From: Bulleidia sp.
GTDB lineage: Bacteria > Bacillota > Clostridia > Oscillospirales > Ruminococcaceae
Assembly (NCBI GenBank): GCA_963655125.1
Contig: CAVKDR010000006.1
Coordinates: 85,521 to 149,520 of the forward strand
Length of the DNA stretch: 64,000 nt
Direction of reading: 5' to 3'
Below the pieces are notes generated by a model. It saw nothing but the letters and a program-made list of their open reading frames with translations, made no database searches and had not been told where the DNA came from. A program made the position numbers and the translations under genes. How positions within the stretch are numbered: the first letter of the stretch is position 1; every line of letters begins with the position of its first letter. Below are positions 27,793 through 39,210 of the stretch, piece after piece.

Positions 27793-28122
<330 letters not shown>

Positions 28123-28153
28123 TTTTCAGACTTTTCCATTTTGATTTAGATAA

Positions 28154-29800
<1,647 letters not shown>

Positions 29801-29829
29801 GCGGTACAAACCCCATAAATAACTAATAG

Positions 29830-29872
29830 CCCCCGGCACCTGCCTGAACAGCAGGTGCCGGGGGCTTTGTTG
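29830..29872. terminator. Bidirectional terminator between convergent groEL and the XRE gene
   Basis: 14 bp perfect stem cccccggcacctgc / gcaggtgccggggg with a 7 nt loop, U-runs on both sides. Confidence 0.8.
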
Positions 29873-29897
29873 TACTTGTCTATTTAAAAAGTAATGA

Positions 29898-30206
29898 TCA
29901 GATCGTATCCGTTTTGTTTTTGTTCTTTAGATGGGCGATTAAATAGTGGATGGCTTGAATATCGGATTCCGTTAGTCCGTCTACACTGACGGTTGCTGAA
30001 CTTTCAAGCCCCAACAAATAATCCGTAGATACTTTGAAAATGTTTGCTAGTTCTACAAGGTACTGGGTGGAGGGCACGGAGATCCCCATTTCCCACGCGT
30101 TTACACTGGAGCGGGTGATTCCCAGCTGTTTGGCCAGTTCAGCTTGCGTCATAACGTTCTGTTCGCGCAGATGCCGGATCCTATAGGAAATCATCACATC
30201 AGCCAT
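29898..30206 (-). CDS. XRE-family (Cro/C1-type HTH) transcriptional regulator
   Basis: MADVMISYRIRHLREQNVMTQAELAKQLGITRSSVNAWEMG HTH-XRE signature. The ATG is at 30206; the track extension to 30338 is unsupported. It lies in the low-GC island, divergent from the operon. Confidence 0.75.
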   Translation of the reverse strand: MADVMISYRIRHLREQNVMTQAELAKQLGITRSSVNAWEMGISVPSTQYLVELANIFKVSTDYLLGLESSATVSVDGLTESDIQAIHYLIAHLKNKNKTDTI

Positions 30207-30245
30207 GGAATTTTTCACCCCTTTGGATGTATAGTAGAACAAACT

Positions 30246-30274
30246 AAATGATATTGCATTATCAAAATGATATT
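30246..30274. promoter_or_regulatory. Candidate operator: two direct AAATGATATT repeats (19 bp apart) embedding a TGATATTGCATTATCA near-palindrome, in the divergent XRE/operon promoter region
   Basis: Repeats at 30246-30255 and 30265-30274; the second overlaps the -35 TTGACA of the +-strand promoter (TTGACA-N17-TACAAT at about 30279-30307). Confidence 0.35.
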
Positions 30275-30369
30275 TATAATTGACAATTGATTTAGCCATG
30301 CTACAATAAAGATAGCGAAAAAGCCTGCAAGATGGCAAACTCCAAAATCAAAGGAAAGAGGGAAAATTT

Positions 30370-31410
30370 ATGAGTTTGGTTACCATGAAATGCCCCAGCT
30401 GTGGCGGAACACTTGAACTGGACAGCACAAAAGAATTCGGTTTCTGCATTTACTGTGGAACAAAGGTGAGAATCCAGGATGAAAAAACGAGAGTAGAAGT
30501 TTCCGGACGCGTTAAGTTTGATGAGACGGAAAAGTATAAGAACTTTCTGAACCTGGCAAATCAGGCTTATGCAAATGGAAATGTTGGCGAAGCGTATGAT
30601 TATTACACAAAAGCGCTTGAAATCCGGCAGGACGACTATCTGCCTGTGTTCCGTAAAGGCCTGTGTGCAGGCTACCTTTCCAGCGAGAACGGCCTTCGCG
30701 TAGAAGAAGTGGTGGCAGGTGTATCGCATGGCTTCGACATGGCACCGGATAAAAAGGCCTGTCAGAATATGTCTGATGAGATTGTGACTTTTGTTGTAAA
30801 TCACGGCGCACCGCGCAACGATGGATTTTATAGTTCTGATGATTGCGCACGGTATGTGAAAGCTGTTTACAGCCGGGCTAATTTGTTGAACCGTTTGTAC
30901 CGGTTCATTGACCAGGAAAATGTGGATGACGTTATTACTTATATCGAAGCGGTTCTGGATTGCTGCCAGCGGGTTAATTCCTCGGTCATGAAGTTCTCTG
31001 CCGGGACATCGGTAAAGAAAGGCAAGGCCGAAACGGTCTACGGAACCTACCCGGTGCCGCAGAACATTACACATGAAATGGCAGATCTGAACAAAAAGTT
31101 TACAGTTGAGTATAACAAGTTTATTGAGCCGAGAGTGAAAAAGGCGGAGCGGGAAGTTGAGAATATCAAAAAGAAAATCGATGCACTCCCAGTGGTGCAG
31201 AAAATTGCGCATTATGTGTGCAACTGGTGGGTGTTCCTGCTGGGTTTGCTCTTGGTAAATAGCATTGGCATGGTCATCTGGATGGCTCAGCTGATTCTGC
31301 TTGCAGTGGCAAAAGTGACTGACAAAAATGGCACTACAAAGAGCCTGTATACAGAGTTGAAGAAAAAGAAGAAAGAATTGGCCGCCCTGAAAAAGCAACT
31401 TAAAAAGTAA
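30370..31410 (+). CDS. Zinc-ribbon / TPR-like / C-terminal TM tail-anchored protein (YdjG-like), function unknown
   Basis: N-terminal CPSCGG..N12..CIYCG zinc ribbon, helical TPR-like middle, single TM (WWVFLLGLLLVNSIGMVIWMAQLILLAV), Lys-rich coiled-coil tail. Low GC. Confidence 0.55.
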   Translation: MSLVTMKCPSCGGTLELDSTKEFGFCIYCGTKVRIQDEKTRVEVSGRVKFDETEKYKNFLNLANQAYANGNVGEAYDYYTKALEIRQDDYLPVFRKGLCAGYLSSENGLRVEEVVAGVSHGFDMAPDKKACQNMSDEIVTFVVNHGAPRNDGFYSSDDCARYVKAVYSRANLLNRLYRFIDQENVDDVITYIEAVLDCCQRVNSSVMKFSAGTSVKKGKAETVYGTYPVPQNITHEMADLNKKFTVEYNKFIEPRVKKAEREVENIKKKIDALPVVQKIAHYVCNWWVFLLGLLLVNSIGMVIWMAQLILLAVAKVTDKNGTTKSLYTELKKKKKELAALKKQLKK

Positions 31411-31427
31411 AGCGGAGAGAACAGGCT

Positions 31428-32573
31428 ATGGCGATTTTTGAAGTAATCAAATACGAAGGGGACAATAGCACCTTCGTTTGGAAACACCCTGCCGAAGATT
31501 TTAATACAAAGTCGCAGCTGATCGTGCACGAAACCCAGGAGGCACTTCTTTTCAAAAATGGTGTTGCGCTAGACTTGTTTCCTGCAGGGCGCTATACCCT
31601 GGATACACAGAACATTCCTCTGCTTCGGAAATTCGTAAATCTTCCTTTTGGCGGCGTGTCTCCGTTCCATTGCGAAGTGTATTTCATCAACAAAGTCGTT
31701 TCGATGGATGTGCTGTGGGGAACAAGTTCTCCAATCCCTGTCAAGGATGCGCAGTATGGCATTATTCTACCGGTAGGTGCCAATGGGCAGTTCGCTGTTC
31801 AGATTGAGGACAGCAGAAAGTTCATCACTACCATGATGGGCACGGTGCGGGAGTTTAATCAAGCAACGCTCACAAACGCATTCCGTGGCATCCTGATGAC
31901 AAAAATCAAGGACTATATTGCCAACCAATTTGTCAAAGAAAAAATTACATTCTTGGAGATCAATGCGCATATCGAGAGCATCTCCCAGGCAATCCAAGAA
32001 AAGCTTTCGGCTGAATTTGCCCAGTATGGCATCCGTCTGGTCAACTTTAACGTAAATGCTATTTTTGTGCCGGAAAGCGACCCCTCTTATCTGCGCCTGA
32101 AAGCTGCACTGGCCAGAAAAGCTGAAATGAACATTGTGGGCTACAATTACCAGCAGGAAAGAACCTTTGATGTGCTGGAAGGTGCGGCCAAAAACGAGGG
32201 CACCGGCGCTGGAGTCATGGGGGCAGGTATGGGCCTTGGCATGGGTGCAAACCTTGGCAGTGTGATTAGTGCCGCCTTTGGCGGGGCAATTGCTTCTATT
32301 GATGTAAAAGAAACGGCACCCCAAAAGGCAGAACGAGTATGCAGAAAATGCGGCGCAAAACTGCCGGAAAACGCCAAATTCTGCTTTGAGTGCGGAGAGA
32401 AAGCTGTTCTCGATGAGACGGTGATCTGCCCGAATTGCAAGGAGCCGACACCCAAAGGAAAGTTCTGCCTGCATTGCGGACACAGGCTTACCGTTACATG
32501 CCCACAATGCGGCGCAAGCCTAACACCGGGTGCGAAATTTTGCCCGGAATGTGGGGAAAGATTAGGTAACTGA
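31428..32573 (+). CDS. SPFH/Band-7 (Band_7_1-like, YdjI-like) protein fused to three C-terminal zinc ribbons
   Basis: N-terminus AIFEVIKYEGDNSTFVWKHP matches the SPFH Band_7_1 start pattern. There is a Gly-rich linker and CRKCG..CFECG, CPNC..CLHCG, CPQCG..CPECG ribbons. It sits 18 bp after the previous gene. Confidence 0.6.
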   Translation: MAIFEVIKYEGDNSTFVWKHPAEDFNTKSQLIVHETQEALLFKNGVALDLFPAGRYTLDTQNIPLLRKFVNLPFGGVSPFHCEVYFINKVVSMDVLWGTSSPIPVKDAQYGIILPVGANGQFAVQIEDSRKFITTMMGTVREFNQATLTNAFRGILMTKIKDYIANQFVKEKITFLEINAHIESISQAIQEKLSAEFAQYGIRLVNFNVNAIFVPESDPSYLRLKAALARKAEMNIVGYNYQQERTFDVLEGAAKNEGTGAGVMGAGMGLGMGANLGSVISAAFGGAIASIDVKETAPQKAERVCRKCGAKLPENAKFCFECGEKAVLDETVICPNCKEPTPKGKFCLHCGHRLTVTCPQCGASLTPGAKFCPECGERLGN

Positions 32574-32575
32574 GT

Positions 32576-32953
32576 ATGAAAAATAAAGTATATCTGGCTG
32601 TAAGTGCAATCCTTACAGTACTTGTAACGGTGGCGATGTTTCTGCTTTGGCCGGGTAGAGATGGCGTGTTCTGGACGATTTATATCTTTTCAAATCTTGC
32701 AATTTGGAGCGTAGGTGCTAACGCTGCCTACATGTCAGCGGAAAATAAATCGTTTGCAGCAAATTTAATGGTAGTTACGGTATCCGTTGTATATCTTGTA
32801 GTAAGTGTTGTATGGTCGGTTCTGTCAGTTGCAATCCTTGCTGCAAGCACTACGCTTTGCCTGGTAGGACATATTGTTCTCTTGGGAATCTTCCTGATTC
32901 TATGGCTTCTTGCCAAAGTGGCGGCAAAATATATCAATAGCCAGGATAACTAA
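32576..32953 (+). CDS. Small 4-TM membrane protein, unknown function
   Basis: 125 aa, entirely hydrophobic helices; start 3 bp after the SPFH gene stop (translational coupling). Confidence 0.5.
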   Translation: MKNKVYLAVSAILTVLVTVAMFLLWPGRDGVFWTIYIFSNLAIWSVGANAAYMSAENKSFAANLMVVTVSVVYLVVSVVWSVLSVAILAASTTLCLVGHIVLLGIFLILWLLAKVAAKYINSQDN

Positions 32954-32959
32954 AATCAA

Positions 32960-32998
32960 GCCCTGCATCCGCCGCAAACGGATGCAGGGCTTTTGTTT
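32960..32998 (+). terminator. Rho-independent terminator closing the island operon
   Basis: gccctgcatccg-ccgcaaa-cggatgcagggc followed by ttttgtttgt. Confidence 0.8.
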
Positions 32999-33064
32999 GT
33001 ATTTTGCCCCGCCTTGTGCTATACTAAATAAATCTTACGATTTTGTGCAAGGGGGGACTGCGCC

Positions 33065-35576: not shown

Positions 35577-38234
35577 ATGCAATGGACAGGACTTAACGAA
35601 CTGCGCGAAAAGTATCTGCATTATTTCGAGACCAAAGGCCACCTGCGCCTGGGCAGCTTCCCGCTGGTGCCGAAAGACGACCCCAGCCTGCTGCTGATCA
35701 ACAGCGGCATGGCCCCCATGAAGAAATGGTTCCTCGGCCAGGAAGAACCGCCGCGCCACCGCGTGACCACCTGCCAGAAGTGCATCCGTACCCCGGATAT
35801 TGAGCGCGTCGGCATCACCGCCCGCCATGGCTGCTTCTTTGAGATGCTGGGCAACTTCAGCTTCCAGGATTACTTCAAGAAAGAGGTCATTCCCTGGGCT
35901 TGGGAGTTCCTGACCAAAGAGCTGGAGATCCCCGCCGATAAGCTGTACATCTCCGTCTATCAGGACGACGACGAGGCTTACGATATCTGGACCAAGTCCG
36001 TTGGCATCCCTGAGGACCACATGGTCCGCCTGGGCAAAGAAGATAACTTCTGGGAGCATGGCTCCGGTCCCTGCGGCCCCTGCTCTGAGATCTACTATGA
36101 TCGCGGCCTGAAGTGTGGCTGCGGTAAGCCCACCTGCGGTGTTGGCTGCGACTGCGACCGCTTCATGGAGATCTGGAACCTGGTGTTCAGCCAGTACGAT
36201 GCTGACGGCAAGGGCAACTATGAACTGCTGGCCAAGCCCAACATCGATACCGGTATGGGTCTGGAGCGTTTGGCTGTTGTCATGCAGGATGTCAACAACC
36301 TGTTCGAGGTCGACACTGTTGCCGCTGTTCTGCACCATGTCGAGCGCCTGGCCGGTAAGACCTACGGCGAGAACGACAAGGACGACATCTCCATCCGCGT
36401 TATCACCGACCACATCCGCGCCACGGTCTTTATGGCATCCGATGGCATCCTGCCCTCCAACGAGGGCCGCGGCTACGTCATGCGCCGTCTGCTGCGCCGC
36501 GCTGCCCGCCATGGCCGTATGCTGGGCATCAACCGCCCGTTCCTGACCGAACTGGTCGACACCGTCATTGAGTCCAGCGAGGCCGGTTATCCCGAACTGC
36601 GTGAGCACGAAGCCTATATCAAGAAGGTCATCGGCACCGAGGAACTGCGCTTCGGCCGCACCATCGATGCCGGTCTGAACATCCTGAACGGCATGATGAG
36701 CCACCTGAAAGAAGTCCACGAGAAGGTCCTGTCCGGCGCGGAAGTGTTCAAGCTGAACGACACCTTCGGCTTCCCCCTCGACCTGACCCGCGAGATCGCC
36801 GCCGAGGCAGGTCTGGCTGTTGACGAGGCCGCTTTCCATGTGGAGATGACCAAGCAGCGTGAGCGCGCCCGCGCCGAGCGCCTGGCGAAGGATATCTCCG
36901 GTTGGAGCGCCGACCTGTTCGGTGAACTGACCGCCGAGGCCACCCAGTTTGACGGCTACGACACGCTGAGCGAGTCCGCTAAGGTCATCGCCCTGTCTGA
37001 CGGCGAGGAGCTGGCCGATGCCATTGCCACCGATGAGGCAGGCGAGAGCAAGGACGGTGTGCTGGTCGTGCTGGACCGCACCCCGTTCTACGCCGAGATG
37101 GGCGGCCAGGTCGCTGACCACGGCTACATCACCAACGGCGATGCCAAGCTGAAAGTCACCCAGGTCAAAAAGACCCCCAAGGGCTATTTTGTCCATACCT
37201 GCGAACTGCTGGATGGCACCATCCATGTGGGCGATGAAGTCACCGCTTCCGTTGACACCCAGCGCCGCATGGCCATCTGCCGCAACCACACCGCCACCCA
37301 CCTGCTGCAGAAAGCCCTGCGCGAGGTCCTGGGCGAGCATGTCCACCAGGCCGGCAGCTATCAGGATGATAAGCTGACTCACTTCGACTTCACCCACTTC
37401 AGCGCCGTCACCCCCGAGGAACTGCGCAAGGTCGAGGACCGCGTCAACGAGAAGATCTTCGAGGCTCTGCCCGTCACCATCCAGAACCTGCCCATCGAGG
37501 AAGCTAAGAAGATGGGCGCTATGGCTCTGTTCGGCGAGAAGTACGGCAGCGTTGTCCGCGTGGTTGACGCTGGCGGCTGGAGCACCGAGTTCTGCGGCGG
37601 CACCCACGTCACCAACACCGCACAGATCGGCTGCTTCAAGATCCTCAGCGAGTCCAGCGTGGCCGCTGGCATCCGCCGTATCGAGGCCACCACCGCTTAC
37701 GGTGTGCTGAACCTGCTGGATGAGCGCACCGAGCAGCTGGCTAAGACCGCCGTTGCCCTGAAGGCCAACAACCTGAAGGATGCTCCGGCCCGCGCCGAAG
37801 CCCTGACCGCTGAACTGAAAGAGACCAACAAGCAGCTGGATATCCTGAAAGCTGAGATGGCTTCCGCCAAGATCGATGGCCTGTTCGAGAATGCTGCCGA
37901 CATCGATGGTGTGCGCATCGTCTCTGCCTACCTGACCGGTACCGGCGCTGACACCCTGCGCGACATGGTCGATAAGGTCCGCGACAAGGCCCCCAACGCT
38001 GTCACCGTTCTGATCGGCAGCGATGGAAATAAGACCATGATGGCTGTTGGTGTTTCCAAGAACGCCCTGGCCCGCGGCCTGAAAGCCGGTGCCCTTGTCA
38101 AGAAGATCGCCGCAATCGCAGGCGGCAACGGCGGCGGCAAGCCCGATTTCGCCATGGCCGGTATCCGCGATACCTCCAAGATCGATGATGCCTTGAACGC
38201 CGTGCCCGAGATCGTCAAAGCGGAAATGCAGTAA
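35577..38234 (+). CDS. alaS: Alanine--tRNA ligase
   Basis: Full-length AlaRS with catalytic, editing (HTATHLL) and C-terminal DHHA1 domains; ATG 35577 is 9 nt after GGAG. Confidence 0.95.
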   Translation: MQWTGLNELREKYLHYFETKGHLRLGSFPLVPKDDPSLLLINSGMAPMKKWFLGQEEPPRHRVTTCQKCIRTPDIERVGITARHGCFFEMLGNFSFQDYFKKEVIPWAWEFLTKELEIPADKLYISVYQDDDEAYDIWTKSVGIPEDHMVRLGKEDNFWEHGSGPCGPCSEIYYDRGLKCGCGKPTCGVGCDCDRFMEIWNLVFSQYDADGKGNYELLAKPNIDTGMGLERLAVVMQDVNNLFEVDTVAAVLHHVERLAGKTYGENDKDDISIRVITDHIRATVFMASDGILPSNEGRGYVMRRLLRRAARHGRMLGINRPFLTELVDTVIESSEAGYPELREHEAYIKKVIGTEELRFGRTIDAGLNILNGMMSHLKEVHEKVLSGAEVFKLNDTFGFPLDLTREIAAEAGLAVDEAAFHVEMTKQRERARAERLAKDISGWSADLFGELTAEATQFDGYDTLSESAKVIALSDGEELADAIATDEAGESKDGVLVVLDRTPFYAEMGGQVADHGYITNGDAKLKVTQVKKTPKGYFVHTCELLDGTIHVGDEVTASVDTQRRMAICRNHTATHLLQKALREVLGEHVHQAGSYQDDKLTHFDFTHFSAVTPEELRKVEDRVNEKIFEALPVTIQNLPIEEAKKMGAMALFGEKYGSVVRVVDAGGWSTEFCGGTHVTNTAQIGCFKILSESSVAAGIRRIEATTAYGVLNLLDERTEQLAKTAVALKANNLKDAPARAEALTAELKETNKQLDILKAEMASAKIDGLFENAADIDGVRIVSAYLTGTGADTLRDMVDKVRDKAPNAVTVLIGSDGNKTMMAVGVSKNALARGLKAGALVKKIAAIAGGNGGGKPDFAMAGIRDTSKIDDALNAVPEIVKAEMQ

Positions 38235-38283
38235 ATCCACAGCGCAAGCTGTTTCCCATTCCACCATAAAGGAGGGACGAACA

Positions 38284-38628
38284 ATGGACGATTGCCTGTT
38301 CTGTAAGATCGCTGCAGGGCAAATCCCCTCGAACAAACTGTACGAGGACGATCAGCTGCTGGCTTTCTACGACATCGACCCCCAGGCCCCGACCCACTTC
38401 CTGGTCATCCCCAAGCAGCACATTGACTCTGCTGCCGCCCTGACCGAGAGTGATGCCGCCCTGCTGGGCCACATCTACGCCGTTATCGCAGACCTGTGCC
38501 GTCAGCTGGGCGTGGCCGAAAACGGCTACCGCGTTGTCACCAACGTGGGTGCCGATGGCGGCCAGAGCGTCAAGCATCTGCACTTCCATGTGCTGGCAGG
38601 CCGCAGCCTGGCATGGCCTCCGGGCTGA
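38284..38628 (+). CDS. HIT-family (histidine triad) protein
   Basis: CLFCKI..., HLHFHVL histidine triad. Confidence 0.85.
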   Translation: MDDCLFCKIAAGQIPSNKLYEDDQLLAFYDIDPQAPTHFLVIPKQHIDSAAALTESDAALLGHIYAVIADLCRQLGVAENGYRVVTNVGADGGQSVKHLHFHVLAGRSLAWPPG

Positions 38629-38670
38629 TGCCTTGCCGCGTACAAACAAAAACGAAATGAGGTAGCTATT

Positions 38671-39210
38671 ATGGCTGATACCTATACTTTGCATATCGCG
38701 GGCCTGACCCGTGAACTTCCCATCTGCAAGGTCAATGACCATCTGGACATTGCCGCCTTCATCATGTTCAGCGATGTGGAGCTGACCGAGGCCTGCGCCG
38801 CTGCGCTGCTGAAGAAAGCCCCCGAGTTTGACGTGATCCTGACCGCCGAGGCCAAGGGCATCCCCCTGGCTTACGAGATGGCCCGCCAGAGCGGCAAGTA
38901 CTGGATCCCCGCCCGCAAGGGTGCCAAGCTCTACATGAAAGAGCCTGTCATCATCGAGGACCAGTCCATCACCACCGCTGGCAAGCAGACCCTGGTCATC
39001 GACAAGAAAGACATCGACTATATGAACGGCAAGCGCATCCTGATCGTGGATGACGTTATCTCCACCGGCGGCTCTCTGCATGCCCTGGAGACCCTGGCCG
39101 CCAAGAGCACCGGCACCGTTGTTGGCTGCTGCGCTGCCCTGGCCGAGGGCGATGCCGCTAAGCGCACCGACATCTTCTTCCTGGAGCCGCTGCCGCTCTT
39201 TGCCCACTAA
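38671..39210 (+). CDS. Type I phosphoribosyltransferase-family protein
   Basis: PRPP-binding motif ILIVDDVISTGGS; exact substrate class unclear. Confidence 0.55.
   Translation: MADTYTLHIAGLTRELPICKVNDHLDIAAFIMFSDVELTEACAAALLKKAPEFDVILTAEAKGIPLAYEMARQSGKYWIPARKGAKLYMKEPVIIEDQSITTAGKQTLVIDKKDIDYMNGKRILIVDDVISTGGSLHALETLAAKSTGTVVGCCAALAEGDAAKRTDIFFLEPLPLFAH

Follow-up and report, generated by a model that had tools for sequence, protein, structure and literature searches.

An SPFH protein of the YdjI (SamI) type with three C-terminal zinc ribbons, encoded by a variant operon lacking pspA within a small accessory island of a gut Clostridium

The stretch of DNA analyzed here, referred to below as the window, comprises 64,000 nucleotides (nt) of contig CAVKDR010000006.1 (positions 85,521 to 149,520; assembly GCA_963655125.1, Bulleidia sp.). 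An open reading frame (ORF) at 31428..32573 on the plus strand starts with ATG and encodes a product of 381 amino acids (aa), denoted here SPFH-ZnR3. This protein is a Band_7_1 / YdjI (SamI)-type SPFH protein with three C-terminal zinc ribbons, and its gene belongs to a PspA-less operon variant located on a small accessory island. The assignment to the soluble, YdjI/SamI-type SPFH proteins draws on the ORF, the Pfam matches to Band_7_1 and to zinc ribbons, a collinear BLASTP alignment with Bacillus YdjI, and the 90% cluster of the protein, which includes RefSeq WP_300676270.1, annotated as “SPFH domain-containing protein [uncultured Gemmiger sp.].” A sequence-only reading of the window had described an SPFH domain, a Gly-rich linker, and three ribbons in this ORF. 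All three are present as described, and the two strings quoted in that reading, EVIKYEGDNSTFVWKHP and GTGAGVMGAGMGLGMGANLG, as well as the six CxxC knuckles, are found in the translation.

The SPFH domain occupies aa 24 to 217 (31497..32078, plus strand), where Pfam Band_7_1 (PF13421), whose gathering score is 24, is matched at 144.7 bits (E = 4.1e-42). In an AlphaFold2 (AF2) model built from an alignment of 70 sequences, this domain is predicted with confidence (predicted local distance difference test [pLDDT], 80 to 93). Comparison of the model to the PDB using Foldseek retrieved stomatin, flotillin, HflK/C, prohibitin, and QmcA, with E values from about 1e-8 (best, 9e-9) to 1e-5. A sequence search of the PDB with the whole protein retrieved nothing with an SPFH domain, only weak ribbon-level matches (ribosomal L40e/L32, E > 0.1), so that the fold search was needed to reveal the SPFH relatives. 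A scan of NCBIfam detected no specific family and only noise-level matches to the ribbons.

No transmembrane (TM) segment was found in SPFH-ZnR3 by a hydropathy scan, in which the best 19-aa window scored 1.36, under the TM threshold of 1.6; the AF2 model likewise contains no TM helix. Downstream of the SPFH domain, the model shows only two short helices (aa 219 to 255) and no long coiled coil. Proteins of this subfamily lack an intrinsic membrane anchor, so the description of the SPFH domain as a “membrane scaffold” in the sequence-only reading needs qualifying.

The C-terminal tail consists of three ribbons of the minimal, ∼22-aa type (PF13240/PF13248/PF12773). Ribbon 1 (aa 304 to 327; 32337..32408, plus strand), matched by Pfam Zn_ribbon/DZR, has the layout CRKC-x10-CFEC; ribbon 2 (aa 333 to 354; 32424..32489, plus strand), also matched in Pfam, CPNC-x9-CLHC; and ribbon 3 (aa 357 to 379; 32496..32564, plus strand), which contains the best Zn_ribbon_3 stretch (aa 355 to 379), CPQC-x10-CPEC. 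The spacing between knuckles is accordingly 10, 9, and 10 residues, rather than the 11 to 14 given in the sequence-only reading. Over aa ∼296 to 379, the matches to Zn_ribbon_3 (64.7 bits, three stretches), DZR (62.6 bits, three stretches), and Zn_Ribbon_1 (53.4 bits) all exceed the respective gathering scores. Within the 70-sequence alignment, in which the lowest identity is 56%, none of the 12 cysteines of the tail varies (C305, C308, C319, and C322 in ribbon 1; C334, C337, C347, and C350 in ribbon 2; C358, C361, C372, and C375 in ribbon 3), and those of ribbon 2 stay invariant once Bacillus YdjI joins the alignment. Exactly three CxxC...CxxC units are present in 116 of the 120 best homologs. 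Given this invariance and this constancy of number, the three-ribbon tail is far beyond chance, and the call of a YdjI-type Band_7_1 SPFH domain, a Gly-rich linker, and three zinc ribbons is borne out.

The geometry of the ribbons is less sharply defined. The AlphaFold check that had been proposed for it shows short β-strand pairs, or small β-hairpin units, at each ribbon, but with only moderate confidence (pLDDT, 53 to 65); the ribbon assignment therefore rests mainly on the hidden Markov model matches and on cysteine conservation. A Lys-Phe pair preceding the second knuckle (“KFC”) is nearly invariant in each ribbon across the same alignment. Counted from the sequence, the net charges of the ribbons are approximately +2, +3, and 0, that is, mildly basic, and there is no extended basic surface. 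By analogy, the tandem ribbon tail is most likely a multivalent protein-interaction module.

The SPFH domain and the ribbons are separated by a region that itself falls into two parts, distinguished by column identity: a conserved Gly/Met-rich segment (aa 256 to 280; 32193..32267, plus strand) and a variable linker (aa 281 to 303). Mean column identity in the 70-sequence alignment is 0.74 in the former versus 0.43 in the latter, and G269, M272, and G273, within the core GAGMGLGMGxNLG, are invariant. The model treats aa 256 to 302 as disordered (pLDDT, ∼30). In conservation, the Gly/Met-rich segment equals the folded domains of the protein, unlike aa 281 to 303, and is for this reason more than a mere spacer; it is also the most hydrophobic stretch of SPFH-ZnR3, the sub-TM maximum given above (Kyte-Doolittle score, 1.36) falling here. 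The segment may contact the membrane or a partner. An interpretation as a TM or re-entrant anchor was not adopted, the hydropathy being below threshold.

To compare SPFH-ZnR3 with YdjI, the Bacillus loci were retrieved with the primer sequences published in PMC8581546, yielding YdjI (323 aa), YdjG (341 aa), YdjH (255 aa), and PspA. The YdjI sequence was from Bacillus tequilensis (L008:422-1393), and YdjG was taken from a metagenome contig. The BLASTP alignment of SPFH-ZnR3 with the B. tequilensis YdjI is collinear and spans 313 aa at 23% identity (E = 8e-18), including the SPFH domain, the Gly/Met-rich stretch, and the ribbon, with each of the three ribbons matching the single ribbon of YdjI. 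A Met/Gly/Asn-rich stretch analogous to the conserved segment is carried by Bacillus YdjI as well. The Pfam content of YdjI (Band_7_1, Zn_ribbon_3, and Zn_Ribbon_1) has the same composition as that of SPFH-ZnR3.

The combination of an SPFH domain with C-terminal zinc ribbons is common, routinely annotated, and already described, and its prototype, YdjI/SamI, has been studied. The homolog search with SPFH-ZnR3 was saturated at about 8000 clusters: of the 8000 candidates scored, 7963 were significant, and the 120 top matches listed were without exception full length (353 to 408 aa) with the same Pfam set. Source databases name these proteins “SPFH domain-containing protein” or “membrane protease subunit (stomatin/prohibitin family),” and the layout is common to thousands of gut Clostridia proteins. 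The sequence-only reading had called the fusion unusual and had itself named a common architecture as grounds for giving that up; the architecture being common, the claim of novelty fails.

How variable the tail is became apparent when the SPFH region alone (aa 1 to 250) was compared to 1.84 billion representatives at 50% identity, which yielded 3358 clusters with E ≤ 1e-3, of which 2042 had E ≤ 1e-10. Among the best 150 of the 50%-identity representatives matched by the SPFH domain, 68 had no ribbon, 11 had one, 40 had two, 23 had three, 4 had four, and 4 had five. A Pfam scan for tail domains, limited to the 68 ribbon-less representatives of these best 150, identified a SHOCT tail in 23 and GYF_2 in 4. 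The frequency of SHOCT (23/68) agrees with the published pairing, PF13421 being the most common partner of SHOCT (PMC3581485); both SHOCT and GYF_2 are short binding or oligomerization modules (PMC3581485). Judged from these sequences, the Band_7_1 tail is a swappable short module of variable copy number (0 to 5), of which the treble ribbon is one ordinary state. Such a modular, copy-variable tail accords more readily with a role in avidity or docking than with one that demands precise catalysis or sequence specificity. In five relatives (P0201, P0203, P0219, P0250, and P0267), two or three ribbons lie N-terminal to the SPFH domain, which then starts at about aa 130, instead of or besides the C-terminal ones; the ribbon array is thus positionally mobile as well as variable in number.

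The gene for SPFH-ZnR3 lies second in a compact set of three, with gaps of 17 nt upstream and 2 nt downstream. The upstream gene (30370..31410, plus strand) encodes a 346-aa protein, defined from the ORF, weak Pfam matches to Zn_Ribbon_TF and TPR, AF2, and Foldseek, that consists of an N-terminal ribbon (MKCPSCGG...FCIYCG), a TPR-like region, a TM region, and a Lys-rich C-terminal helix. Its AF2 model (mean pLDDT, 80.8) shows TPR-like repeats at aa 53 to 201, followed by a β-hairpin and a long helix, and Foldseek returned TPR proteins only. A hydrophobic segment of ∼35 residues (approximately aa 281 to 315), compatible with one long TM segment or a hairpin, precedes the Lys-rich helix. The protein belongs to no Pfam family and has only 28 detectable homologs, all uncharacterized, which together form a small and fast-evolving family. 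When compared to YdjG using hhalign, it was matched with a probability of 90% (E = 1.5e-6) over the N-terminal ribbon only (34 columns). It nevertheless shares with YdjG the end-to-end layout of an N-terminal ribbon and a C-terminal TM segment; an NTF2-like fold has been reported for YdjG.

The downstream gene (32576..32953, plus strand), which starts 2 nt past the SPFH stop codon, encodes a small, multipass membrane protein of 125 aa with approximately four TM segments, for which no match was found in Pfam, NCBIfam, PADLOC, or PHROGs. The Pfam scan detected the TPM_phosphatase domain in none of the neighbors of SPFH-ZnR3, whereas Bacillus YdjH matches it at E = 7.7e-22. Divergently from the three genes runs a gene for an XRE-family helix-turn-helix (HTH) regulator (29898..30242, minus strand; Pfam HTH_3, E = 4.9e-15), for which the gene call in L001 gives 114 aa and the longest ORF extends as far as 30338; an XRE regulator occupies the same position in L003, L004, and L022. 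A σ70-like promoter candidate (TTGACA-16-TACAAT with an extended TG, 11/12 positions) lies at 30280..30307 on the plus strand; it comes from a consensus scan only, and promoter-like sites in the region are not above shuffle expectation. A hairpin and repeat search identified bidirectional terminator hairpins at 29828..29866, after groEL and the XRE gene, which forms the left edge of the island, and at 32958..32992, after the 125-aa gene, which forms the right edge of the operon.

PspA was sought in three ways. None was present among the Pfam-scanned neighbors of SPFH-ZnR3; searches of the 64-kb window with Bacillus PspA by tblastn and phmmer --max, of which the single-sequence sensitivity is limited, returned nothing; and no PspA_IM30 was listed within 6 to 8 kb of six homologous loci. 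A connection of this cassette to PspA is unsupported.

The neighborhood recurs in other lineages. In Sedimentibacter sp. zth1, the same three-gene set is found, with identities of 68% for the SPFH protein, 32% for the 346-aa partner, and 35% for the 125-aa partner; the homolog of the latter occupies the same position and has four predicted TM segments. In other lineages, gene order and partners vary, but a gene that starts with a ribbon of the form M..K.CP.CG...KEF.FC..CG always adjoins the SPFH gene (8/8 lineages examined: the window together with L003, Sedimentibacter, P0039, P0069, P0103, P0110, a Butyrivibrio plasmid, and Bacillus YdjG). The search for homologs with the same fusion and for their contexts, suggested in the sequence-only reading, thus shows the fusion to be abundant and a ribbon-headed neighbor to be present in each of these eight lineages. 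A ribbon-headed partner adjoining in every lineage examined provides a concrete docking hypothesis for the ribbon tail.

A second type of context was also seen (L005, 9175-10876; L010, 7175-9034; SPFH proteins P0039 and P0069, ∼59% identical). There, the SPFH gene comes first and is followed by genes for one or two ribbon-headed soluble proteins (375 to 377 aa and 184 aa) and then for a DUF975 membrane protein, an arrangement that replaces the pair formed by the ribbon-TPR-TM protein and the 4-TM protein. In a further locus (L013, 5534-5809 and 1-1672), the SPFH-ZnR3 gene adjoins Mor-family, DUF927, and Ser/Thr kinase genes and IS66 TnpB fragments, which suggests that this copy lies in a mobile element.

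In the window, the cassette is set between housekeeping genes of a Gemmiger/Subdoligranulum-like gut Clostridium, with tig, clpP, clpX, and groEL on one side and vanZ, a penicillin-binding protein gene, alaS, comEC, and holA on the other. The GC content of the cassette is 0.38 to 0.50 versus 0.58 to 0.66 around it. Across contigs encoding an identical GroEL protein, the groEL-vanZ spacer (29800-33064 in the window) exists in three states: empty, with a length of 177 nt (L018, L021, and L023); occupied by one or two LysR genes and MatE (L019 and L020); or occupied by the cassette (L022 and the window). Homology to the empty site ends just past the groEL terminator. Because the spacer varies in this manner and homology stops at that point, the cassette is an accessory island of ∼3.1 kb in a strain-variable hotspot. 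Flanking direct repeats, which would have indicated site-specific insertion, were not found in a search for direct and inverted repeats around the island, which returned just the two terminator hairpins and repeats of the ribbon motif.

Two possible origins of the gene were considered and rejected. For a phage origin, a tblastn search of phage genomes gave one marginal, partial match at 24% identity, and PHROGs matched only generic ribbons and the HTH regulator. As to a plasmid-specific gene, the search yielded 167 plasmid records, mostly covering the SPFH domain only (Ralstonia megaplasmids and others), and query coverage reached 80% or more in just three. Relatives were, however, seen on a Butyrivibrio plasmid of 20 kb and close to IS66 fragments. 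Separately, three ORFs on the minus strand, at 28058-29839, 30301-31398, and 38215-39207 (593, 365, and 330 aa), match no family and run antisense across groEL, the 346-aa gene, and the HIT/phosphoribosyltransferase genes, respectively; they are most likely spurious reading frames, which are common in sequence of this kind.

With regard to function, we consider it fairly probable that SPFH-ZnR3 is a cytosolic, anchor-less SPFH scaffold that is docked by the membrane partners encoded in its operon and uses the ribbon tail as a multivalent interaction module within a membrane-stress complex. By analogy, the SPFH domain would oligomerize beneath the membrane, where the operon partners, not an anchor of its own, would hold it. 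The flexible tail, comprising the Gly/Met-rich segment and the three ribbons, might then dock or regulate these partners, and the whole complex could sense membrane stress or organize or gate the response to it, as SamI restrains SamG/SamH in Bacillus subtilis. In the Bacillus experiments, YdjI has no TM segment and is soluble, and both YdjG and YdjH are required for its membrane foci (PMC8581546); in two-hybrid assays its partners are YdjH and PspA, and SamI restrains SamGH signaling (PMC8581546; bioRxiv 10.64898/2026.02.06.704340). Together with these experiments, we count in favor of the docked scaffold the Band_7_1 match and the SPFH fold, the homology to and collinearity with YdjI, the lack of a TM segment, the close packing of the gene with those of two membrane proteins in an operon that has a single promoter candidate and is bounded by terminators, the ribbon-headed neighbor that recurs in eight lineages, and the modular tail. 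Several observations weigh against it. Identity to YdjI is only 23%, and AF2 confidence for the ribbons is only moderate (pLDDT, 53 to 65). Homology between the 346-aa partner and YdjG does not extend beyond the ribbon of ∼34 aa, and the middle of the partner is TPR-like; YdjH, with its TPM domain, is absent, an unrelated small TM protein standing in its place; and no pspA was detected in the 64-kb window, within the limited sensitivity of the search, or within 6 to 8 kb of the six homologous loci.

The alternatives differ mainly in what the tail would bind and in what the island would be for. A role of the three-ribbon tail in capturing DNA or RNA at the membrane appears very unlikely. Nucleic-acid binding is within the capacity of zinc ribbons in general (PMC3581485), the N-terminal ribbon of the 346-aa partner weakly matches a TFIIB-type ribbon model in Pfam, and the ribbons of SPFH-ZnR3 are mildly basic; however, these ribbons are minimal and have no extended basic surface, their number varies from 0 to 5 in close relatives, with SHOCT or GYF_2 taking their place in others, and the operon encodes no nucleic-acid enzyme or partner recognizable in Pfam or NCBIfam. 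The documented interactions of YdjI in Bacillus, moreover, are with proteins (PMC8581546). Of the suggestion in the sequence-only reading that the fusion serves the capture of nucleic acids or protein partners at the membrane, the part concerning protein partners is plausible and compatible with the YdjI data, whereas the part concerning nucleic acids finds no support. The protein could also anchor itself, with the Gly/Met-rich segment and the Lys-Phe motif of the ribbons binding the membrane directly, the three ribbons providing avidity, and the neighbors being clients rather than anchors. The conservation of that segment (0.74, with G269, M272, and G273 invariant), its status as the most hydrophobic stretch (1.36), and the near-invariant KFC in each ribbon would fit this proposal. 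Its hydropathy nonetheless remains below TM level, Bacillus YdjI is delocalized without YdjG or YdjH despite carrying an analogous segment (PMC8581546), and no lipid-binding precedent was found for this type of ribbon, so that we regard self-anchoring as unlikely.

A different kind of explanation takes the four-gene island as an accessory conflict module, active in antiphage defense or abortive infection, with the SPFH protein as sensor or scaffold and the membrane proteins as effectors. The low GC content and the strain-variable groEL-vanZ hotspot point in this direction, as do the divergent XRE/cI-like regulator and the homologs found near IS66 fragments, on the small Butyrivibrio plasmid, and beside Mor and DUF927 genes. 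A comparison to PADLOC-DB 2.0, however, gave no significant match for the three structural proteins: a noise-level LeoBC match for the SPFH protein (E = 0.008, 13 bits), none for its two partners, and a generic HTH match for the regulator. In addition, phage genomes and PHROGs contain virtually no SPFH domain of this kind, the island contains no nuclease, NTPase, or other typical effector, and accessory status fits stress-tolerance cargo equally well. A defense function is accordingly improbable in our judgment.

More speculatively, the XRE regulator, the ribbon-TPR-TM protein, SPFH-ZnR3, and the ∼4-TM protein might together form a membrane module that works independently of PspA, moves horizontally, and is gained and lost by strains at the groEL-vanZ hotspot, with a ribbon-ribbon or ribbon-TPR docking code in which ribbon copy number tunes avidity, and that confers a strain-specific trait. 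We hold this reading to be doubtful. If it were true, the trait could be, for example, bile or antimicrobial tolerance, or phage exclusion, and the module would be a distinct, undescribed SPFH system, not a degenerate Psp operon. As a discovery, the fusion itself matters little, since the architecture is common and annotated and its YdjI/SamI prototype has been studied. Of modest value are three findings: the ribbon tail is variable in copy number and interchangeable with SHOCT or GYF_2; a ribbon-headed partner is encoded alongside in all eight lineages, which points to docking as a testable role for the tail; and the gut Clostridia carry the module on small accessory islands where pspA is missing.

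Four known systems come closest to SPFH-ZnR3. Archaeal proteins that combine SPFH, a coiled coil, and a zinc ribbon in “Meth_adaptin” ESCRT-related loci (PMC10936438), likened here by description, share the SPFH-plus-ribbon combination and a membrane-remodeling context; they differ in being archaeal, in carrying a coiled coil, and in their linkage to ESCRT/adaptin genes. Stomatin, HflK/C, flotillin, prohibitin, and the QmcA-NfeD system share the SPFH fold and, probably, oligomeric scaffolding under or on the membrane. The anchored cage formers of this group possess an N-terminal TM segment or hairpin and a long coiled-coil wall or lid, whereas SPFH-ZnR3 has none of these, and a Pfam scan of its neighbors detected no NfeD or FtsH partner. 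The Band_7_1 (PF13421)-SHOCT proteins have the same SPFH core followed by a short modular C-terminal domain, a SHOCT tail there and a zinc-ribbon array here.

The fourth system is the pspA-ydjGHI (pspA-samGHI) operon of B. subtilis, to which the prototype YdjI belongs. The two differ as follows: YdjI has one ribbon and SPFH-ZnR3 three; YdjG combines two ribbons with an NTF2-like domain, whereas the 346-aa partner has a TPR-like middle; the TPM-domain YdjH is replaced here by the 125-aa, ∼4-TM protein; pspA is linked there and not here; the SPFH gene is the last of the operon there and the middle one here; and a σW promoter there contrasts with a low-GC accessory island bearing an XRE regulator here. 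In YdjI/SamI and SPFH-ZnR3 alike, a Band_7_1 SPFH domain that lacks a membrane anchor is followed by low-complexity sequence rich in Gly and Met and then, at the C terminus, by CxxC...CxxC ribbon sequence containing FCPxCG; in both systems, the product of a neighboring gene begins with a zinc ribbon and carries a TM segment toward its C terminus.

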